20,000 nt of DNA from an uncultured virus (IMG/VR IMGVR_UViG_3300013426_000033) (IMGVR_UViG_3300013426_000033); one strand, 5' to 3'; positions 1 to 20,000 are shown, counted from the first letter of the stretch. The notes: generated by a model from the sequence alone, not told the origin. Made by a program: numbers and translations.

Positions 1-1010
1 TTTATCTTTACTTCTGCAACATTACATTGCAGTCCAGCATAACTTTTCACGCTTAATGTCGATGCGTGGCGCGGCCTCGTGGTAGGATTATATCTTTTCA
101 CCTACTATGCGTTGCCCCTGACTATATTTAATATAGCCTTCGGTTCTGATTGCCTTTGTATACGGTTTTCCAGCTTAATTCCGCGCTAATAATATTAAAT
201 CTTCAATCGACTTGATTTAATACGGCATTTCTAATTTGAACAAATTTTTCATATTTACGGTCTAAAAATATATTACTGTTTAAATAAATAGAAGATAAAT
301 TAGAATAACATTTCCAACTACACCATTCAATGCTATACGCATTACTTCTTTTATCTTTGCGCATTTTAGCATCAAACCAATCCATTTTAGAAATTAATTC
401 TGTTAAAAATTCTGGAGAGCCAGATGTTAAACTCATCCTGCCAGTTAAACAATGTTTATTTTGTGTAATTCCTATATATCCGTCCCCATCAAAATATCCT
501 CTAACAAAATCTCTAAGAAAATCATTAGGAACCTATTCTTCTGTGGGGAATTGTAATTGCAAACTTTTATTAGGACAACAGCCTAATTTAATTAAATCAT
601 TATGCATCTTTTTTCTACTAATAGCAAAAGATACTTCATTATACCCATTTACAATTTTATCGCTTACTTTTGCCGGAGAATTCAAAAACTTCTTAAACTT
701 AACCAAATGATTAATATCTCTTTGCTGTAATACAATGCTTATATGATTATTTTCTCCTTTCCGAATATATCCATCGGCATAAAGAAAACCTAACCAATAA
801 GCTTTTTCTTCCGTATCAATTAAAGAAAAAATATTGTCATTAGTTCCATTATCATTCTATCTATTTATTACAATATATCCTTGGCTTTTTATATACTCTC
901 CCAAATGACCTCGACTACATTGTAATTTTTTAGAAATCTAAGTCAAACTTAAATCTCCTTGTAAATATAATTTTAAATCCTCTTCGTATTTTTCGTTCAT
1001 TTTAGATTTT
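1..1010 (-). mobile_element. Group I intron in the DnaB-like helicase gene (3' splice site just beyond the left edge of the window)
   Basis: The helicase frame breaks right after Walker A ...GTGVG (GGT at 1013-1011), with TAA at 1004-1002. Minus-strand core: P2 TATTAAATC/GATTTAATA, P3 GCGCGG(186-181)/CCGCGC(74-69), P-like GCGGAATTAAGCTGGAA, Q-like AATCAGAACCGAAG, R-like GGGGCAACGCATAG, P7 GCATA(110-106)/TATGC(41-37), P8 CACGC/GCGTG, P9 CTGCAA/TTGCAG. The core is clearly similar to the intron at 3399-3699. The 5' splice site is inferred by analogy because the 3' exon is outside the window. Confidence 0.88.
203..1000 (-). CDS. Intron-encoded double-motif LAGLIDADG homing endonuclease, 265 aa (3 TAG read as Gln)
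   Basis: ATG at 1000 to TGA at 205-203, open except for 3 TAG. Motifs KAYWLGFLYADG and FVRGYFDGDG, C-terminal FLDRKYEKF, HTH-like N-terminus. The ORF track shows only the last 77 aa. Confidence 0.92.
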
Positions 1011-1694
1011 ACCAACACCCGTTCCTGCCGAAGAAACTACAAACTTTCTTGGCTGGATACCTTTTGTTATAGTTGTCATATAATTGCTTGCATAAGACAG
1101 ACCATAAGCAGGAGTTTTCTTCCATTCTTCTTTTTGCTTTTTAGCTTCATCGCTACCAGCTTTAACACTATCTCGCCCAACTTTAGGACTATATTCTTGC
1201 GTGATATTAGATACTTTTTGCCTAAAATGATTAAGAATTTCATCAATAGTCATTTGACTAAATTTATATCTTTGTTCATCAGCAATCTCAGGGTCTTCTT
1301 CGTTAGGGTCAAAAATTTCATCAACTTCAATACCTGATTTAAGATAGGCACGAAGAAGAGAAAACTTTTTCATTTCTTGATAATTAGAGTTAAAATTTTC
1401 TGGTGTGGCTAATTCTTTAGCCTTTTCAACATAAAGATTACCATTATTCCTTGTATAAATATTATACAAAGACTGAAGATTATTTTTTAAATAATCATCA
1501 ATAATATATTGGTCAAGCTTTACCGCGCCTTGTGAGAAAAGATTGTTTATTGCTACAAACAAAAGCTGATGGAAAGCTTCAACAAAATCTTTTTTGTCGA
1601 TTTTATTACTTGTTAATAAAGTTGGATTCTACAGTAAACAGCCAAGAACTTCTTTAATTGCAGATTTGCTTTGATAATCTCTATAATCCGCCAA
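1011..1694 (-). CDS. dnaB: DnaB-like replicative helicase, exon 1 (228 codons; remainder beyond the window)
   Basis: TTG at 1694 after a G-rich SD. N-terminus MADYRDYQSKSAIKEVLGCLL(TAG=Q)NPTLL...DFVEAFHQLLFVAINNL resembles the DnaB N-terminal domain. The exon ends in ...TKGIQPRKFVVSSAGTGVG, the Walker A region of SF4 helicases. Confidence 0.82.
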
Positions 1695-2471: not shown

Positions 2472-3792
2472 TTATTCTACTGTAATATTATTTTCAGTAC
2501 AGTAATCTTTCAAATCATCGAGAATAAGCAAAAGCATATCCAATTGAGATTCATCGCAATCTTTTACACTCTTACCCTTTCCAAGATATTCTGCAATAAT
2601 CTTCTTATACTCTGTACTACCAGTATTATGAATAGCCTTTACATAACTACCAATTTCAGCAATAAGCTCATCAACGCTCTTCTTTTCATCTTCGGTTACT
2701 TCGTTATCCTTAAAGAGATTAACCTCATTATCAACAACTGTAGCACCGTGAGCCTTTTGTTCATCAATAGCCTTTGCCATGTCATCACGCAATGCTTCAT
2801 AAGTAAATGGAATGCATTCAGACATATAAGGGCTACGAGAACCAGCCTCAAGATGTTTGTTACCTCTCATCGTAAGCATGGAATGAACATTACCTTGTTC
2901 ATCAGTTTCGTAAGAAGCATAACCAGTTACGTCAACAAGACGAGAAACGACAAGGAATCCACGGTCAGGTACAGTAGGAATAGTCTTATCATACTTTTCA
3001 CCGTTTTCCTTAATCTGTTTAGTAGTAGCATGAGAAATACAAATCAAAGTATAACCAGCTTTAACAATCTCTTGGAAAAATTTATCATATTCACGAGACA
3101 AAGCACGATAACCACGCATCTTTTCAGTCTCGTCAAGATAATCTACACCTTCTTTGTCTACGATATACTTTTCACAAAGGTCGTAGGCAATATCAATAGT
3201 ATCGACAATTACCGTTTTAAAGATTGTTTCTCTATTTTCCTTTTCAGCCGCTTCTGCATCTTTAAGCAACTGCTTCTTTACTTCAAGAGCTTCTTTCCAA
3301 GTGTTAATTGGCTGTGCAATAATGCCATCCAAAAAACCATAGCCCTTTTCGAAACCGAGCAAAATAGGCTTTGGGAATTTACAAGCGTTTGTAGTTTTCA
3401 TTGTTATTATCTGTAAGCTTTTTATCTTACACTCTGGAGCTTTCGCTCATTTTCATCAATCTGTCAATTCAGATTCAGTTTGGCGTACTTTTTCAACCTT
3501 ATACGAGATAAGGTGTTGCGGACTCTTGGTAATATTATATTCTTTAATCAAAGGTTCAATTACTACGCTCTGCCCCTGTTTATCATTTTAATAATAAACT
3601 TCGGTTCGAGTTAACATAATTATTACAAATTAAGTCTTCTCGCTTAATTCCGCAATTTCGTCAATTGTCTTACAACAAAGGGTGGCAAAACACTACGCTA
3701 CCACTTTTTCTTTCTCCATAAATGAGAAAACTCTTACCACTAAGGTCACGAGTGACCACATTAGGCTTAATGCTAAAAATATCAATACCCAT
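2472..3792 (-). CDS. P-loop ATPase, Sak4/AAA_24-like phage recombinase, 339 aa; spliced join(3792..3700, 3398..2472)
   Basis: Exon 1 MGIDIFSIKPNVVTRDLSGKSFLIYGERKSG (SD TAAGGAG) joins exon 2 KTTNACKFPKPILLGFEKG to rebuild Walker A GERKSGKT. Walker B TVIVDTID and ICISH motif are present. An SSB gene lies nearby, which is typical of Sak4 systems. Confidence 0.85.
3399..3699 (-). mobile_element. ORF-less group I intron, 301 nt, in Walker A of the ATPase
   Basis: 5' exon ends in U (AGTGGT) and pairs with internal GCCAC through a U.G wobble (P1). GTAGTGTTTT can pair with 3' exon AAAACTAC (P10). P3 TTGCGGA(3655-3649)/TCCGCAA(3522-3516), P7 GCGTA(3568-3564)/TACGC(3487-3483), P8 CCTTAT/ATAAGG. Terminal G at 3399. 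Removal restores the frame and the GKT motif. Confidence 0.93.
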
Positions 3793-4586
3793 TATTTAAA
3801 TGTCTCCTTATTATATTCTTTTAATTTTAAATAACTCTCATATTTTCTTGTTAAACGTATATCATCTGTAGAATCTTTATACAATTTATCTAAATATTCT
3901 TCACATAAAAACCTTCCACTACAACCAAAGTTCCAAGCATTTGCTCTTTTAACTTTAGTGACTTTAGATTCAGATTTTCCATTACTTAAATAAAATTGAA
4001 TTTGTTTTAAAAAAGCTTCTTATCCAACAAAATCTATCCTGTAATGATGTTCTGATACAACAAAAGAAATACTTCCGTCTCCATCAAAATATCCGCGAAT
4101 AAAGTGAAAAATATAATTTTCTCCTATGTTTGGAATACGGTCAATTTTTAAAGACTTCTAAGGAACACAACCCCATTTTCTTAAGTCTTCTACCATTTGT
4201 TCACTTTTCACTTGAAAACAATAAGTTGTACAAACAGGAGTGAATCTTTTATCTTCTCTTACCCTAATTGAATATCCCTCTGTAGATATTGCCGTTTTAA
4301 ATTTTTTTACATGGTCTAAATCTTTTAATTCTAAGCAAACTTTGTTGGCATGAACACAACCGTCTGCATATAAAAAACCTAACCAATAAGCCTTTGCAAA
4401 ACTATCAATCTAATTAAAATACAGATGATTTACAGAGTATAAATCTGTATAAGTTCTTGTAGAGTAGCCAAAAGATTCTAATGCTTTTTTAATTTCATCC
4501 CTTGTAACTTTTAACTACTCTTGAATTTCTCTTACAGATTTTTTCTCTTTTTTAAATAATTTAACAATTTCTTCTTCCTATCTCAT
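3792..4586 (-). pseudogene. Free-standing double-motif LAGLIDADG endonuclease gene (265 codons, 4 TAG=Gln) with an internal TAA at codon 189
   Basis: ATG at 4586, 3 nt after the SSB stop. Motifs KAYWLGFLYADG and FIRGYFDGDG, C-terminal RLTRKYESY. In-frame TAA at 4022-4020 (GTT GGA TAA GAA GCT), after which the frame continues homologously to TAA 3794-3792, which overlaps the ATPase ATG (TAATG). Absent from the ORF track. Confidence 0.85.
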
Positions 4587-8477: not shown

Positions 8478-11400
8478 TTATTCTGTAACTAAAACGATAG
8501 AACAATTAACAGGAACTTCTTTAGAATTATCCACCGTTAAATTAAAGTCAAACCATCTCTAAGCAATCTAAGCCATATTAGTTTGCTTAACAGCTTGAGA
8601 GTCAGGCATCCAAATATAATCTGATTCTTCTTTGCCTGTACCATTTTTAGGACCCCAACGATATTTAACAGGCCCGCTAACTGTACCGCCAGTTGGGTCG
8701 CTTGCAATAATCTTACCATCACCAATTTTATCAAGTTCAGTATAAGTATTACTAATATAATTATAAGCGGTATAAGTTAAAGAATCAAGGTCAGAATCAG
8801 AAAGCAAAATAGAAATTCCACCTTCGATAGTTAATTTCTTATCAGAAGTGTAAGTTAAAATTTTCTTTTTATCTATTAATGTCGTTGTACCATTCATCAC
8901 TGAAAGATATACATAAGAAGTCTTTGGAGTAAGCCCCTTATTCGTTAAATTGTCCAAAATTGTAGAATCTTCTATATTGACTCCCCCACTAGTTTGCCAA
9001 TATGCTCTGTATCCATATATTGTTCCAGTATACGCTACTGAAGAATCAAATGTTAAAACAGAACCAGTATAAGAAGAAATTTTATATAAAATAGGGTCTC
9101 CATTTGAATCTGTATAATCTGTAGTTAAAGATTCAGAAATTAGCAAAGATATATAACAATTAGAATGAGAATTTACTAAACTAGCTAAATTTTCATTGTA
9201 CTCGTTAGTTGTAAATATTCTGTTCTGCGAAGTCGCTAACAAAGCATTACTAAGAATAGTATCAAATTCGTTAGTATAAATCTAAGAATAAATCTAACTG
9301 CCAGTAGATTCTCCCTCGGTCAAATCTTTATCAATTACAACATCAATAGCTTTACCTTCTTCATCTTTGTAATCTCCACTTTCATCAAGATACAAATATT
9401 CAGTGTCAACCTGAAGAACCCAGTCGGCAGAACCATCTGCATTAACAGTATATTTATATTGACCAACATAATAAGTTTTAGCTTCTTTTCCAAAAGGAGC
9501 AAAAATAATATCTTTGGTTAAAATATAAATCATATTCTAATCCATATAGTCTGGCTCTTCTTTAAATTCTTCTACAAGCATATATTTCAAAGTAGTTTTG
9601 TTAGAATCAGTATATTTATACTGTAGAGCAAAACCAAATTTATCGGGGACAGTCATATTACTTAACATGCTTTGTATATCATAGCTGGTAGATTTGCCAC
9701 CATTAAAACAAGCTAAAGGCTCGTTAGAACCATTTTTAAATACTTGCATCTTAAGCATATTAGGATTTTTGCGAATCACTTTGTTTTCTTCATCAACGAG
9801 AAGCAAATCCAGCCCACCAACTTTTACGGTATAAACATCTCCACCAAGAGATATATCACCTGACGTAGAAGAAGGCAGAGGAATATAATTGTTCGCAGAT
9901 TTAAGAGTGTATGCTTTATAATTAAGATTATTATAACTATCACTCTTCAAACTACTTTCAATAACAAGTTCTCCTATTTCTTTGTCATAAGAAAGCAACC
10001 TCTTATATTCATCAGCAGAATTTTCATCTGAGAAAATAGAAAGATAAATTGAACGTCTATCAAGCTATCCATTATTTAAAGAAGCAGAGGAGCCAATTTC
10101 ATCTTTAGTAACCTTATCATAATAAACATAATGGTCAAAAGATGCAATTAAAGTATCAATCTTTTCTTCTACAACAATTTTAGTAGAAGACATTGTATAA
10201 CTACTTAAAGTATAATATACGACATTCCCACTTGCATCTTTAATTGGAGTATTTTCATCAGAATACAAAACAATAGAAATTCCATCTGGATAAAGAGGAA
10301 TTGCATCTAAAAGAGCTTGGTTGTCTTGTCTCGTATACAAAGTAGAATAAAGTTCATTATAAAGAACTGTATCTACTTCACTTAAATAAAATTGCGTATA
10401 ACTTGCATGAGCAATTTCCATCAAAGTCTTCAATTCAGTTCCAGTAATATTATTAAAGAAACCAACTTTGTTGTCAGAAGTCACATAAGGGAACCTAAAA
10501 CGAGTAAAGAAAGAGAATACTTCTGGAATCTGAATGGGCGTGTTATTTGCGTCTGCAACCTGAGTATAATTTAATACTCTACCAGAAGTTGTGTCAACAT
10601 AATAATATTTTGAATTGCTACTCAAATACACATCATTGGAAGTAACTGTCTTTTCTGTCTCTCTATCGGTAGAGATAACATAAACAGGACTAACTACTTC
10701 AAGTTTAATAGCTTGTTCATCACAAATCAAAGAGTTAGCAAGAGGGACAACAGAACTATAAACTGCATATTCAATATAAAAAGTATCTTCTTCGCTATAT
10801 GCTTTACCATATTTATCGTGAATAGTTATTCTAACTTTATAGAAATTATTCGTTTCAAAGCCCTTAAAATCCCATTCAAGGGAAGAATCGTAAATATCAT
10901 CAGATTCAGAAATTAAAGTTTCATTATTATAGTTATCAATCGAATACAAATAATAATGGTAATACTTAATTTCAACATTATTTACAGATTCCCACGTCCC
11001 CAAAAAAGCGACATCTCTCCATGGTGCAGGAACAGATTGGTCGATATCTATATAAGGAACAGATTCTAAATCTAATTCACGATAATCTTTATATTTAATT
11101 CCTAATGTCGGCGCTTGCCTTGCGTACAAAACAGCATTAGGAATAGAATCCATAAAGTCAGTATAAACTGTGTAATCAGTTTGAGGAACAATAATTTGTT
11201 GAATATCGCCAGTACTTTGTGTAGCAATAGTACAGTTATTTTTCAATAACCATTGAGTATTATCAAGCTTATTAAAAGTAATATCAGTTTTCTTTCCAGC
11301 AACATATTGTCCCAGCTCACTAATTTTTTGCTTAACATTTAAACGAACTCCATTTTCCCATACAATTTGAGGAGGATTTTTTGCATCCGACTTAATATTA

Positions 11401-12679: not shown

Positions 12680-15600
12680 TTATCCTCTGCTCTTTCGAGT
12701 TACATTCCATCTGGAACCCATTGCGGTTGTTACTCCACTCCAGAACTTAGCAGGGTCATTTACTCCTTCAAGCACAACATCGCCCTGAACAATATATTGT
12801 GTACCACAATTATTATCAGTTCCAGTACGCTCCATTTCAGGAAGTCTCGTGGTTGCCATATTGCGTAACAAATTATAAGCTTGGTCATTATTTAAAACAT
12901 ACTCAGGCTTAGAAGGTGTACCATGCAACATTGCAAGTCCTGTATAAGTTACTGGTCCTTCTTCAAGTCCAGAGGCATAACGTGAAACTCTATTAGAATT
13001 GCTTCCTCCGCCTCCAAGAGAACCTCCACTGGACTAATTTCGTTTAGCCAACCATTGTAGTTTAAGCGTTTCATTCAAAGGTACTTGGGAAGTTCCGTAT
13101 AATTTCCTTAACGTTGGGTCGCTATCAATTTTATCTTTACGTAATTTAGCGTAATACTCAAATTCCGCAGGTGTTTTAGCAGCCAACATCAATTTACCGT
13201 AATCTTCTTTACCATAATTAACCGAAGAAGAGCTGGAACTGGAAGAACTACTCGAATTATTCTTGTTAGAACTAGTCGAACCAGAAGAGCTTCCTTTGTT
13301 TGAATTGCTATAATTATAGTTGGAATTGGAATTAGAAGAAGAATTACTCTTACCCTGATTTGCTAACCACTCTTGATAAATTTCAGCATTGCTTTTTATT
13401 CTGTACGCATTACCCGCGCCATCATAACCAATACCATTACCACTAATATCTGTGTTCTGTCTACGAGCTTTTTCAGCACGATAAGCCGCCCACTTATTAA
13501 ATTCAGTTTCACTTCTAGCGGCTAACATCTTGGCATGATAATCTTCATTTTCATCAAGGTCGGAAAAATCATAAGTATTTAAATCATCTTCATCATAATA
13601 ACCATCAGGGGTATCATTCTTGTCATAGAAATCAGAGGTATCTAATAATTCAAGCCTCTGTCTGCGTAATTCTGCTAATTGTTCATTAGCTTGACGATAA
13701 GGCGTAAGCAAGTTGTCTTGGAAAATCGTAGTATAATTCTTATAGTTCTATTGAATATTAGAATTAAACTTCTCCATATCTGCGGTGATACGAGCGCGAA
13801 TTTCTTCTTCAGAGTTCGCGTTCATAAGCTCTTTTAGGATACGTTCATTTTCAAGACGCTCATATTCCTTATAGTCCCATTCAAGTTGTTCAAGATATTT
13901 ATCCCAAGCGTCTATACGGTCTTGGAGAATTTGTTGCTCTGCATCTTTTGTGTTATTGAGGTCATCAAGGCGGTCTTGTTTATAGAAATCGTCGATATCC
14001 TTCTAAGCTTCACGTAACTTAGTAGGATTGGATTCGTATACCCAACCTATCGAATCTGTTACTTTTGTGACCATAATTAAAATTATGGCGGCAAGGTATT
14101 TCTGCCTTACTCTCGTGTTTCATTTTTAGATTATAGCACGAGTCCAGACTGTATATTATATTATTTAATAATATTATTTAAATAACACGATAGCTGAACT
14201 CAACATGTTACCATATTAAGTATGACAGTCGTTCGAGTTTCTGTTAAAATTATTAAAAAAATCATCCAAAATTTCAGTAAGCCTTTTTTTATCCTTGTAA
14301 GAAATTTCTAAGAGACAAATTCCTTTTTGCTAACAATATTCTTTCTTTATTTTATCCCTCTTTTGTCCATCTTCAAATCTTTTTGCAGCTTTCTATTTAG
14401 ATTCTTCTGTAGGAGTATAAGAAAAATCTACTGGTTTATAATGTTGTTCTCCCTAATATTCTATACATACATTATAGTCTAACAAATAAAAATCAAATGG
14501 AAGAAGCTATTTATATCTACAATCATCAAAGCGTTTCTGCGGGGTAAAATTTATATTATGGTCTTCTAAATAAGTGTAAATAATACTTTCCCCGATAGAT
14601 AGCTTACAAAAATGGCACCCTGTTTGCAAAGTTGTAAATTTGTCTGCTTTTGTAGTAGTTAATCTACCACAAACTTTACAACGACAAGTTACATCTTCTT
14701 TTATGCCATTATATTCTCCAACCACTTCCAAAGAAGGATTAACTTTAGCCAATTTTTCTTCATACCATTTTTTATCTTTTATAAAGCATTCTCTTAATTT
14801 TCTTTTTTTACATTCTGGACAACCTTCTCCTCTTTTTATTTTATTTGGCCTTGCAGAAAAAACGTGCCGATATTTACAAACGAATTCTGTTTTTTCGGTA
14901 TCATTTTTATATTTGCCATAAAGTTTAACTTCTTTATCTGCAATATCTTCTATAAAATCTTCTTCAGTATAATATTTTAATCTGCATCCACAACTTCTTG
15001 CATATAAAAAGCTATATGCGGGAGAAACTCTATCAGGTTTATTGGGATGATTTAGGCAATGAAAAATTACCACTCTTTGATTTTTCTCATTTTTCTTTGT
15101 TCTAACAATTTCAACATTTAAAAATTTAGCTTGTTCTAAATACTTATCTGTTAGTTTCCATTCGAATTTATTTTCTTCTTTATTTTCTTTCATTTTATCC
15201 TCCTTTCTTTATTAATACATAATAATTTTAACAGTCTTACTTCGGTCTCGGCCTTCTCAGGCTATTAACCGATATAGCTATCTTTTACGAGGGCATTGGT
15301 GTTCACCCTCACGGTATACTCTCTCCTTCTCTTTATTGGCGTTCTTTTTAGCCAAAAGAAGATTTTCAAGTTCTATTGCCCTTTCGCGCTCTTTATTAGC
15401 ATCTTCCAAAGGCTTTATTTCATCTTCATAAGCGTCTTCAATAGCATCAATAGCATCTTGCAGTTCTTCCTTATAAAGATTAATTCTATAAACAATTGCG
15501 TCATATTGCTTTTCTTGAAGCTCAGTCTTGTCTTCCAAAGCATTAATTTCAGCTTCATGCAAAGCGACTGTAGCTTCATTTAAACCATCAACAAGGTCTT

Positions 15601-18600
15601 TGATTTGTTCATCTGTTAAATCAGACACATCTTCCAAAGCCTTTTGATATACTTCAATCTAGCTTTGTAATAACGAACTTCTACTTGCATAATAGCTTTC
15701 AATATCAGAAATTCTAATCCACTCTTGAGGTTTGGAATCTTCAAGAAGTTGTAATTTATTAGAAAGTTCTTCAATTTGTGCAGAAGTCCTATTAACAACA
15801 TATTCAACCTGACTATCAATCAAACCAAGATATTTTTCTTGGTCTTCACGATATCTTTGAGAATATTCACTATTACCAAGAGCAACATAAGCACGGGCTT
15901 CAGCTTCACTCATGCCCTCGGTCATATAACCATAAACAGCTTGACTGAAATTAAATTGCATAGAAGCCTTGGTAGCTTCAATTTGCTTTTCAATTTCTGC
16001 GAGAGAAGCATTCATGGCATCATCGTAAGCTGTGCTATTACTCCATGCAGTTCCCTTTACATATTCAAGTTGCCTGTCAGTTAAATTTTGTTGCCACTCA
16101 GAAACTTCTTTACGCAAATCAATCTCATCTTGAAGCAAACTATTAAGGTCTTTCTGATTCTCAAGAAGTTCTTCATAAGTATCAGAAGTTTTGACTAATT
16201 GTTGCTTCATCAGAATCAAAGAATTAATAGATGCCCCATACAATTCAAGAATCTTATACTTATCCTCAACCTCTTCGTCATCAAGGTTATTAATAGCTTT
16301 TTGATTCTCAATGTAATTCTTTTCAGCATCTAATCTCTCTTCTTCTGTAAGATTGGTGTTTTGCATCATGCCTTCATAATAAGCTGCTAATTTTTCAAGA
16401 CTTGCTCTCTTCTTCTCGAAGTACTTTGTATATCCAGTAGGAGTTAAAGTATCTTCATCAAATACCTTCATAGCTTCCCATTCTTTGTCGATTAAAGAAT
16501 CATAGGCTTTGAGAAGGTCGAGGACTTTGTCTTTGGTGTCAGAAGCAGTTTTACCAGCTTCTTTGATGGGATTACGATAATTCTTTTTCCAACTACTCTA
16601 AGTAAGTTTGCCAGAATTAAGCATATCGTCTATTTTATAGCCAAAATGTTCCCAAGTAGCTATATCACCATCATCAAAATGTAACTCACCATCATCGCCA
16701 ACATGGGTTTGACCTGTCCAAGTCCGTGTTTTAGCATTATAATCCATACCACCAGAAAGTTCATCAATTTGAGCTTTTAGAGCATTCATTTTTTCTATTC
16801 TCTATTCTTCATTAAGAGTAATAGTTTTCGTTTCAACTTTGGTATCGTAAACTTTTGCTTTCTATGTGCCAAATTTAACTTTCTTTTTAGCTTCATTATA
16901 TTCTTCAGGAGTAATATCATTATTTTTAGCTTGATTATAAAGCGCCCACATTCCAGCAACATACTCCAAATTATTGGCTTGATTAATTAAAGCATCGCTT
17001 TCCTTTTGAAGTGCATCAATTTTTGCATTTGCAGAGGTTACTGTTGCATCTGCAACTTCTTGATAAGTATTGCCAGCCGCTAATTGTGCATACTGGTTTT
17101 GAAGAGTTGCTAAAGTATTTTTCTTTTCAGCAATAGTTGCCTATACGCTAGCTTGAATAGCTAATAAGCGCACTCTTGCCATAATTTCTTCAGCATCCGT
17201 CTTCAATTTAATAGTGTCACCCTCAAAAGTAAGAGCATTAACATAATCCTCGTTAGCAGCCAAAAGTTCCAGCGTAGTTTCTAAACTTAACTATCCCGTA
17301 GAATTTTGCTCTTCACGAGCAGAAGCTAATTCTTCGAAAATAGTATCAACACCTTCTAAGGCCTCTTTCAGTTCAGCAAAAGTATTAATAATTCCATCTT
17401 CGCCAAAATCTATATCGGAAAACAAACCTTCAAGGCTGTTTGCAATAGTTTGCATATCATATTCAAGGTCGTCTTGAATTACAGCAAGATTAATTTGCTC
17501 ATCAAGTCCTTTTTCAAGGGCTTCGTTCCATTCTTTCCCGTATAGTTGTCCTGCATCATCTAATTCACCTTGTAAATTAAGAATGGCGTTCCAAGTTTCT
17601 TCTCCATAATCTGAAAAAGTTTCTGCAATAGCAGATTTGCTATCAAATCTTGCCCCACTTTGCCATAGCTCTCTTAATCTGCCAGTAATTTCCGTATCTC
17701 CACTCTCATCTACGGCGCGACGATTGGCTCTTCTTTGAGATTCTTGTTGTCTAAGATAATCATCTTTACCATTATAATAATCTCCATTAACAATTTTCAT
17801 CATTGTGTCAGGATTATTAATTGCATTATATCCAATCCAACCTTCTTGAGCTAAATTAAAAGCTCTCTAATATTGGTCTTGGGTCATACCATTAACAGCC
17901 TTCGTGAACTGTTCAGAAATACGCTTACCAATAATGTCAGAATCTAACCCCATAGCTTCAATTAGCTTATCAGTAGAAGAAGCGACAGAAACAGATTCCA
18001 CACCTTTAAATTCAGGATTAATCTTATACCCCATAGTAATAAGGAAAGTCTTAGCATCAGCAGATAACTCGCCATTTTCATCAAGAAGAGCTTCAACTAA
18101 TTGTTTCATCATTTTCTTCTTGGCTTCATCAGATGCACCAACAGTAGCAAATTCTCCCGTGCCATAATACAAATCTACGATAATAGGATTATCTTTAACC
18201 AATTCAGTCATCTGTTGAGATATAGATAAAATCTAAGTTTTAAATTCATCCATATCAGTATATTCTACATCTTCACCACGAATCTTTACCATGGCATTAA
18301 TGAATGTTTGCTCATCTTCATCCATAGCACCAATCGTAGAACTAAGTCCAGAGAACTTATATCCAACATCAACTATACCTTCAGCGGTTGCTGCATAATC
18401 AATCAAAGCATCTGTATATTCTAATACCTCTTGCTTAGAATCGCTCAATACTTTTTCATATGCTTCTTGCTCTGCTTTTAATTCAGCTAATGCTTCAAGT
18501 TGTTTTTTATACTCTTCCGAATTCTTATCAAGAGTTTCAATATAACTTTCTTTCTTAGCTATACGAGTGTTTAAACCAGTTACAGTTCGACCATTAACTT

Positions 18601-19999
18601 TTCTATCTTCTAACTTATTTTGGGCTTTTTGAATATTTTTAGAAGCATTTTCGAATTGTTGGCCAAAAACACTTAAATCGCTACCATTATTAAAAATCTT
18701 GTTAACCCAGTTAAGGAAATCGCTAAAAATTCCACCTGTATCATTATTAAAAAATGCTGTCGTTGAAGCCTCTTTTAACGAAGCCACCATTTTATCAACA
18801 GAGTCAGTTACCTGTCCAACTTTTCCAGATAAACCATCAGGGCCAATTAATTTATTCCCATATTCATCTGTACGAACAACTAACTCAGGGAATGCTTCTG
18901 CTAATTTATTAGATAAATCTAAGAATTGTTGATACTCTTCACTTGTAAGAGAAATATTACGACCTAAAAAGTCAACTCCTTTAGCAAGTTTATCATATTC
19001 AACTGTATTAGCAGAAGAAGACAAAGCATTACTATAAGCCTCAGATGCCTCGTTGTAATTTTCTTGAAGTTGCGTTTTAGCACTGTCAATTCCTTTCATA
19101 ATTCCAGAAACTATTGCTCCTGCAATCATTACGCCTATACCGACCAGCCCTGCTGTCCCCAGAGATGCTTTTACTGCACTTCCGACTGCACTTACTCCCG
19201 AAGAAACCCGTTTTAAAACCGTCCCTCCAACCTAATTAACGGCCTAATTATAAGCTTCTTGATAAACTTTTTTTGCTATCGCGTCACCCAATCCTGAGCC
19301 AGCTTTTGATAATATCTTTCCACCAACGACACTACCCAAGGTCATACCGACAGTTTGCCCGCTAGTTCCTCCAATATTTTTACCTATTGTTGAACCCATC
19401 CAACCACCACTTAATAAACCAAGTAAGCTACCAGCACCAGATAAGGTCATTCCTAAACTCGTTTGTTTTGCAGACTAACCCATGTTTTGCCCCATCTAAT
19501 CAAGTGCTCTTTTACGATTGGGACCAGTATTGTTTCCATTCAACGCCCGACGAGCTAAAAAATCTTTTTTCCGCGCTTCATATTGTTTTAAGGCATTTTT
19601 ATACTCGGCATCGGTCATATTAAGTCTTTTTAAAGCCGCTCTTTTTGCTTGTTCATAAGCCTCAGAAGCTCCTTGCTCATCACCATACTGAGTTGCTAAA
19701 TTCTTTAATGCTACAATATCTTCCCACATAGCATCGTACTAAGCCTCTAATGCCGCTCTACTTTCATTTTTTAAACCAGCAATTAATTTGGTCTTTGTAG
19801 TATCATCTAATAAAGCAACAGTTTCATTTGTTATATTTCCAGATAATAATTCTTCCGCAATTCGTTTTCTATCTACGGATTCTTGCGCTAAAAATGTAGA
19901 TTGAATAATTTTATAAGTAGCTTTTTCTTCATCAGTCAAAGCCGCCGCTGCGCGATTTAATGCGCTACTATAAACTTCACTAGCTACACTATCCATACC
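12680..19999 (-). CDS. Tape-measure-like protein, 5'-partial, about 2020 aa in window; spliced join(>19999..15305, 14050..12680)
   Basis: Track ORFs ending at 19739, 19496, 19244, 18233, 17867, 17291, 16598, 15659 and 13034 are in one frame and all end in TAG (at least 15 TAG). Long helical E/K/A/L-rich sequence, Gly-rich hydrophobic block at about 19100-19450, C-terminal RYASG...LAMLHGTPSKPEYVLN motif typical of tape measure proteins. Splicing gives KERVYREG|IGWVYESNP. TAA at 12682-12680. Confidence 0.85.
14051..15304 (-). mobile_element. Group I intron, 1254 nt, in the tape-measure gene, with endonuclease ORF looped out of P6
   Basis: 5' exon GAGGGT pairs with GCCCTC (P1, U.G). ACCAAT pairs partly with 3' exon ATAGGT (P10). 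P3 GATAGCT(15282-15276)/AGCTATC(14195-14189), P7 GACTG(14230-14226)/CAGTC(14151-14147). A perfect 14-bp stem (15234-15221 with 14254-14241) brackets most of the ORF. Terminal G at 14051. Confidence 0.92.
14216..15193 (-). CDS. Intron-encoded endonuclease, 325 aa: repeated Cys/His Zn-ribbon modules plus a C-terminal Vsr/PD-(D/E)xK-like nuclease domain
   Basis: SD GAAAGGAGG, ATG at 15193. Motifs CKYRH, GCPEC, CKVCG, GCHFC, SIGESII. After TAG at 14509-14507 it continues LLPFDFYLLDYNVCIEY(TAG)GEQHY...RDKIKKEYC(TAG)QKGICLLEISY to TAA 14218-14216. Confidence 0.88.
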
Positions 20000-20000
20000 A

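Follow-up and report, generated by a model that had tools for sequence, protein, structure and literature searches.

A group I intron with a predicted CapR-repeat/Vsr-like homing endonuclease in the tape measure gene of a recoded uncultured phage

The DNA analyzed here (hereafter the window) is a 20,000-nt stretch of the uncultured virus IMGVR_UViG_3300013426_000033; positions are counted from its first letter, and the intron and its host gene lie on the minus strand. Because long frames are open only when TAG is read as glutamine (table 15), we read the tape measure gene under this code, as for the other long genes of the phage. An upstream exon (15305–20000; 1,565 codons, 13 TAG read as Gln) runs off the window and ends ...KERVYREG at 15305. 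It is followed by a 1,254-nt group I intron of IA type (14051–15304) at an insertion site that we call site B and by a last exon of 456 codons plus stop (12680–14050). The loop of intron helix P6a holds a 325-aa open reading frame (ORF; 14216–15193) for a predicted homing endonuclease. A Shine–Dalgarno-like AGGAGG (15199–15204), also present in sister introns, lies 5 nt before its ATG, and its 3′ end overlaps P6a′, P6′ and P7, reaching into P7.1.

A first-pass annotation had named the host gene a tape measure gene, and this assignment is upheld by an orthologue and by annotated homologues. The portion in the window matches PHROG 4211 (tape measure) weakly (E 4e-5), and the upstream exon protein is 70% identical over 1,000 aa to the orthologue G002, whose gene consists of two open frames (2,485 and 2,315 codons) with PF10145 over the cut-off at their junction; the equivalent domain lies outside the window, and membership is read from G002. 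Homologues of the motif region around the junction sit in annotated tape measure genes of the phages PMBT24 and TR-TP1, and a tail protein (PHROG 1887) is encoded downstream. The first 100 aa of the last exon are 89–97% identical to intron-less alleles. The gene is mosaic: G003, G005 and G006 are 30% identical to window positions 17000–19999 (the N-terminal part), and G003 and G005 show 93–96% identity directly upstream of the intron site. The last exon also contains a Ser/Asn-rich low-complexity stretch (13160–13300, minus strand), with no contig coverage at 13001–13334.

The intron splits a short protein motif, RVYREG-IGWVYE, into a left half (15305–15322) and a right half (14033–14050), with two further insertion sites, A (between 15318 and 15317) and C (between 14040 and 14039), within them. 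That this segment is a conserved island holds at the protein level, where the 12-aa motif is 76% identical among 14 distant alleles versus 36% and 23% in its flanks, but not at the DNA level, where it is hypervariable among close relatives.

The splice boundaries are those proposed earlier. U (15305) is the last nucleotide of the 5′ exon and G (ωG, 14051) that of the intron, and excision of 15304–14051 gives an in-frame join, ...KERVYREG|IGWVYESNPT..., that stays open to the stop at 12682–12680. The same position is an exact 0-nt gap in L002–L006 and L011, and the exon junction of the window matches contiguous intron-less alleles at the exact nucleotide level. The expected intron-less homologue was found in L005, which reads YREGIGWVYE exactly, and the unspliced frame ends at TGA 15259–15257 under table 15, as had also been stated. 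The match of the nearest record, G001, to the intron region is confined to 27 nt. In three sequencing runs, probably of DNA, two contigs bridge the intron position; they carry other letters at the site, being intron-less alleles, and are thus uninformative on splicing.

The intron contains the helices of a group I ribozyme, including the P3–P7 pseudoknot core (general definitions in PMC3984707). P1 pairs the exon end with the internal guide sequence (15311–15305/15294–15288, 7 bp) and places a U·G pair at the 5′ splice site, which is conserved in all nine related introns; P3 (5′ strand 15282–15276, paired with 14195–14189, 7 bp) shows compensatory changes in sister introns. Helix mapping and folding locate the P4–P5 hairpin and the 5′ strands of P6 and P6a at 15221–15272, and P6a′, P6′, the P7 5′ strand (14232–14225, the G-binding site) and a single P7.1 hairpin at 14198–14254. 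The 14-bp P6a closes the loop holding the ORF. P3′, P8, J8/7 and P7′ (14152–14146) occupy 14146–14195 by mapping and covariation, and P9.0, P9, P9.1, P9.2 and the terminal ωG occupy 14051–14144 by mapping, covariation and folding. In P7 (14232–14225/14152–14146), the bulged C covaries with the neighboring pair: A–U occurs with bulged C in five of the nine introns and G–C with bulged A in the other four. The pairings P1, P3, P7 and P10 had been called complete; P10 forms five of six pairs and so is not; P9.0 has two pairs in the window and is weaker in sister introns. Subgroup IA2 introns have both P7.1 and P7.2 between P7 and P3′, and subgroup IA1 introns combine one inserted P7.1 with tertiary and peripheral elements of their own. 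Here a single 10-bp hairpin stands between P7 and P3′, at odds with IA2; with this single P7.1 and no P2, the intron could belong to IA1.

This helix set, together with covariation in nine related introns, bears out the group I call. Imposed on those introns, the window structure pairs in 91% of cells versus 37–43% in slid controls, a percentage favored by derivation of the structure from the window's own sequence; two-sided (compensatory) changes occur in 41 of 94 pairs, a count that none of 500 shuffles reaches and that this derivation and the relatedness of the introns inflate somewhat. The 5′ and 3′ ends of the intron fold better than shuffled sequence (z = −4.1 each, 0/200 shuffles as good), and the middle piece (14130–14260) only slightly so (z = −1.5, 14/200). 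The proposed covariance-model check gave no match despite the mapped covarying core: Rfam group I (RF00028) found neither the window, nor its 3′ part, nor an ORF-less 254-nt sister intron. The coverage of phage introns by this model has been called incomplete (PMC11878797). Since Rfam misses the family, tape measure genes in these gut phages would be mis-annotated as split. At the level of sequence, the existence of a group I intron with a CapR-repeat/Vsr-like predicted homing endonuclease at 15304–14051 is confirmed.

The ORF comprises three CapR/DUF723-like zinc-finger repeats (about aa 14–198) followed by a Vsr/EDxHD domain (about aa 197–320). We found 550 homologues among 1,965 candidates. 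Of the 120 that were listed, 88 were aligned with the window ORF, and all 89 sequences share E202, D234, E245, Q250, H251, D280 and five cysteines of the repeats. Pfam matches to the window protein are weak (DUF4379, E 0.008; DUF723, E 0.09); CapR is over the cut-off in sister L010, and the DUF4379, DUF723 and CapR families are matched on most homologues. The best family match is PHROG 559 (E 4e-54). A PDB sequence search returned no matches for the single protein and, for the profile, two weak DUF4379 matches and no nuclease. In the AlphaFold model (pLDDT 94), three similar helix–strand repeats precede a C-terminal domain, for which the top structural matches are Vsr (1cw0; Z 11.3, rmsd 2.8, 111 residues aligned) and I-Bth0305I (3r3p; Z 9.7, rmsd 3.0, 95 aligned), along with a mitoribosomal chain (Z 10.1) and ngo0050 (Z 9.9). 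Foldseek ranks 1cw0, 1vsr and 3r3p at the top, with E values (1.4e-3 to 0.05) all above the 1e-3 mark. By order, conservation and fold, rather than residue superposition, E202, D234, H251 and D280 correspond to E170, D196, H213 and D222 of I-Bth0305I. The C-terminal domain is thus predicted to be a Vsr/EDxHD nuclease fold, and the structure prediction bears out the earlier proposal of Vsr-like (EDxHD) cargo with zinc-finger repeats. The HNH label attached to PHROG 559 and to the TR-TP1 record is rejected, as the fold is Vsr-like; an N-terminal Pfam match to Fragilysin (E 0.003, under the cut-off, 0 stretches) was taken as chance.

The ORF is under purifying selection: dN/dS is 0.077 across its whole length and 0.026 within the nuclease domain. 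Internal promoter sites show no excess (9 sites versus 7.1 ± 2.3 in shuffles). A 7-bp dyad at ±9 to 15, centered on site B, is present in the window, L001 and L015, and few centers would match it by chance (4 of 4,014). L194, whose nuclease is 72% identical, lacks the dyad and TR-TP1 has half of it, so we keep a symmetric nuclease target as a weak lead only. Homodimer prediction for the nuclease domain of an 88%-identical homologue (P0001) scored 0.01 against a mark of 0.42, which is uninformative either way. Relatives at the DNA level are annotated as 'homing endonuclease EDxHD' in Klebsiella phage Muenster and 'intron-encoded protein B' at a Staphylococcus terminase locus. Among other loci with the same nuclease family, only 3 of 79 match the intron profile, so much of the family may stand free or lie in introns of other types.

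Scans of viral, metagenome and genome collections yielded 86 loci around the motif. We collapsed identical junctions and dropped loci with one flank (L012, L030, L051, L058 and L069) and distant loci lacking a two-sided profile match (L074, L083–L086, L088 and L089), which left 43 alleles including the window, 29 from the recoded lineage (largest records, 206–221 kb) and 14 distant. These alleles are related rather than independent; L001, for instance, is 99.9% identical to the window. The 29 distinct lineage alleles comprise 12 without an intron, nine with an intron at site A, three at B and five at C, and none carries two introns. Site A lies 13 nt upstream of B and its introns carry GIY-YIG ORFs; site C lies 11 nt downstream, and four of its five introns have a shorter Vsr-like ORF, the fifth (L031) being ORF-less. 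The three sites thus span 24 nt, and the RNA parts of their introns are 63–78% identical. The single-intron picture of the first-pass annotation was therefore incomplete, in that it missed two sister-intron sites. A pattern scan of viral contigs gave four site-B matches: two already in the set, plus L194, whose ORF is 72% identical to that of the window and of the same nuclease family, and L192. Degenerate forms include the 254-nt site-C intron of L031 (2665–2918) and the site-B intron of L192 (~440 nt), from which most of the ORF is deleted. One record from an uncultured Clostridium sp. (L082), a contig with the length and range of the viral record L019, was binned in a Clostridium MAG, which hints weakly at a Firmicutes host.

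The alleles point to recent mobility. L015 and the window are identical at 87 of 120 and 67 of 120 nt in the flanks (72% and 56%), yet share 45 of 46 nt in the tract around the site and 92% of the intron; this disparity points to recent transfer by homing, with two-sided co-conversion. Among 14 close alleles, nucleotide diversity is 0.26 at −15 to +15 versus 0.056 and 0.061 in distant flanks, roughly 4.5-fold higher at the site. It is 0.16–0.21 in the next 60–100 nt and about 0.06 beyond, giving a broad peak of about −120 to +75, and removal of the three most divergent alleles leaves 0.25 at the site versus 0.05–0.06. Of the 29 lineage alleles, 10 retain the R-E-G triplet, versus 13 of 14 distant intron-free alleles (of the dropped distant loci, L086 keeps it and L088 does not), and the motif Gly is changed to Arg in seven lineage alleles. 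Such a diversified site fits escape from, or conversion by, nucleases, an origin left unproven by alleles that are related and mosaic, and the breadth of the peak could also reflect ordinary recombination.

The window ORF has four TAG codons (229, 247, 267 and 288), every one of them in the nuclease domain. The E-Y-Q-G-E-Q-H motif itself contains one TAG in the window, L015 and L194. A TAG precedes the end of the catalytic motif in 17 of 17 intact intron ORFs examined. GIY-YIG nucleases have a catalytic Glu, and in four GIY-YIG ORFs the chance of a TAG before it is 0.33, 0.62, 0.23 and 0.77. Given these values, and because almost any TAG qualifies in C-terminal nucleases, amber enrichment is not supported. 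A tRNA with a CTA anticodon occurs in the tRNA clusters of two of four relatives. Agate phages offer a parallel, a group I intron endonuclease with recoded in-frame stops, which Borges et al. proposed to delay nuclease production until the code switch (bioRxiv 10.1101/2021.08.26.457843). In Agate TGA encodes Trp and the host gene is early, whereas in the window TAG encodes Gln and the host gene is late and itself recoded, which makes the need for a timing role less obvious.

A cultured relative, Thomasclavelia phage TR-TP1, has a homologous intron of 1,531 nt (PQ571309, about 28517–30047) at the position equivalent to site B (RVYEEG|VGWTWQ); the nuclease that it encodes is related to the window ORF (32% identity) and falls in the same family. 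The TR-TP1 record annotates three separate genes there and leaves the intron unannotated, and a term search of the main text of the isolation paper (PMC12694917) did not find 'intron'. In a small unrooted tree, the TR-TP1 RNA core is nearer to site-C introns than to that of the window (supports 71–97), so site B may have been colonized repeatedly. TR-TP1 also has an apparent second unannotated tape measure intron (L095 6720–8355; PQ571309 about 24720–26350), which carries a further member of this nuclease family (gp28).

Other possible introns were seen. In relatives, the PF10145 core of the tape measure gene contains introns at sites differing from A, B and C (L040 7542–9508; L041 ~9574–9897, minus strand; L042 8127–9278), with other cargo ORFs or none. 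In the window, a DnaB-like helicase frame stops just past Walker A and is followed by a LAGLIDADG ORF with four TAG codons (203–1042 and 1002–1694, minus strand), and group I-like motifs at 1–200 beside this helicase probably mark another intron. A second LAGLIDADG ORF (3400–4586, minus strand) has an in-frame TAA (4022–4020), with the frame open for 75 codons beyond it; group I-like motifs lie at about 3450–3760, between a 315-aa gene and a Sak4-like gene.

Taken together, these data are best explained, with a probability of about 0.85, by a mobile group IA-type intron that interrupts a TP901-type tape measure gene and carries an ORF in its P6a loop. This figure covers the whole explanation, in which the ribozyme core, site and ORF are visible in the sequence and the steps of splicing and homing are deduced. 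We infer the splicing steps from the way group I introns are known to react. Once the gene has been transcribed late in infection, the internal guide would pair with the exon end (P1), a guanosine bound in P7 would attack the U·G site, and P9.0 and P10 would bring in the 3′ site. In-frame exon joining would then give a full-length tail ruler, and unspliced RNA would cost the protein its last 456 residues; dependence on splicing was anticipated from the TGA at 15259–15257. As soon as the phage reads TAG as Gln, the ORF could be translated, using a ribosome-binding site of its own. Its three zinc-finger repeats would bind DNA, and its Vsr/EDxHD domain would cut intron-less alleles near the insertion site during co-infection; repair of the break would copy the intron with about 20–25 nt of exon on each side. 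The motif would then be a homing hotspot, shared with sister introns 13 nt upstream and 11 nt downstream in which the guide has been exchanged and the nuclease differs; the codons at the site have diversified as nuclease escape and gene conversion would predict.

Compatible with this explanation is a reading in which the intron is real but the nuclease mainly interferes with co-infecting relatives, cutting their tape measure gene and blocking tail assembly, with homing as a by-product. The escape-like variation, including R-E-G retention in 13/14 distant intron-free versus 10/29 lineage alleles, and a precedent reported for PhiPA3 (PMC11620839) speak for it; the co-conversion tract of L015, where cutting ended in intron transfer, and the ample homology that close relatives offer for repair speak against it, and we regard it as possible but rather unlikely. 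A passenger ORF, or one that cuts elsewhere, in a splicing intron moved by recombination or another nuclease is improbable. Sister introns of nearly the same RNA do carry unrelated GIY-YIG ORFs or none, and relatives have more free or intronic copies of the nuclease family. Strong purifying selection on the ORF, the same family at site B in three lineages (window/L015, L194 and TR-TP1) and a short two-sided conversion tract centered on the site all argue otherwise. Finally, the locus might not splice at all and might encode two tape measure proteins flanking a free-standing nuclease: a 464-aa ORF can be read in frame from an ATG at 14074, gene callers divide such genes, as in the TR-TP1 record, and Rfam gives no match. 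We judge this highly implausible given that the ribozyme core is complete and covaries and that the exons match contiguous intron-less alleles to the nucleotide; moreover, by eye, no ribosome-binding site precedes 14074, and this ATG lies within P9.2.

A broader joint reading of the locus is speculative and, as a whole, doubtful. The R-x-G-x-G-W-V-x-E island would be a three-way battleground in which sister introns with unrelated nucleases are mutually exclusive because each insertion splits the other targets, and cutting would drive amino-acid change in an otherwise near-invariant tail-protein motif. The amber codons would act as a switch: before the code change, or in a non-recoded phage, the ORF would yield a 228-aa zinc-finger DNA-binding protein lacking the active site.

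The system has several experimental attractions. The nuclease family, a large one, is described only computationally in the literature that we found; here putatively susceptible alleles of natural origin (L005/L006-type) are available alongside candidate resistant ones, which would allow direct mapping of its target. Three introns in 24 nt with a diversity peak offer a system in which to ask whether homing nucleases drive change in structural proteins, and splicing can be tested in the cultured TR-TP1, which has an intron at the same site.

For the cargo, too, the earlier reading was overstated: the family has been described from phage introns (PMC12350094; PMC11878797, Table 2, PHROG 559). 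Merk, Jones and Eddy (2025) describe CapR-repeat plus EDxHD/Vsr proteins as a large unrecognized outgroup of EDxHD/Vsr nucleases (PMC12350094), in which three to five CapR/DUF4379/DUF723-like domains (~60 aa) precede a Vsr-like nuclease of ~100 aa, in phage group I and II introns. The window ORF, with three repeats and a C-terminal Vsr-like domain, has this composition. PHROG 559 'VSR' ORFs are reported in Bastillevirinae terminase introns; the hosts given for the outgroup and PHROG 559 are RNA polymerase and terminase genes, whereas the host here is a tape measure gene. I-Bth0305I (PMC3239194; PDB 3r3p), encoded in P5 of a recA intron and homodimeric on a central 14-bp pseudopalindrome, likewise is a group I intron-encoded protein with a C-terminal Vsr-like domain and E-D-H-D order. 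Its N terminus has NUMOD2/HTH DNA-binding repeats, in place of which the window ORF, which lies in P6a, has three Cys/His zinc-finger repeats; in this trait it departs from the I-Bth0305I subfamily proper.

The view that a tape measure gene is an unusual homing target proved wrong, as tape measure introns have been published (PMC2504315; PMC10448857). Tourasse and Kolsto (2008) describe TMP-IVS1/2/3 in Bacillus cereus-group prophages and a TMP intron in JCL1032 (PMC2504315). The B. cereus introns resemble the window family in being of class IA, occupying several tape measure sites, re-targeting through P1/IGS and swapping nucleases; they differ in phage group and in cargo, which is GIY-YIG, HNH or absent, whereas the window has a Vsr-like, recoded ORF and three sites in 24 nt. 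In Vibrio phage ICP1, Barth, Dunham and Seed (2023) showed splicing of three tape measure introns by RNA-seq and RT–PCR (PMC10448857). Both systems have an intron-split tape measure gene and exchangeable intron nucleases, with splicing shown for ICP1 and deduced for the window, but ICP1 has HNH-3 cargo, a Gram-negative host, the standard code and co-occurring introns, whereas introns of the window lineage are alternatives. A 23-nt exon is described for Twort orf142 (PMC10136302). A literature search covering top results, with subscription journals mostly outside its reach, found no paper on the motif as a three-intron hotspot. The window intron is thus another example of the published tape measure introns and less surprising than first thought; what is added here is three alternative introns within 24 nt, a diversity peak at the site, amber codons and an intron in a cultured phage.
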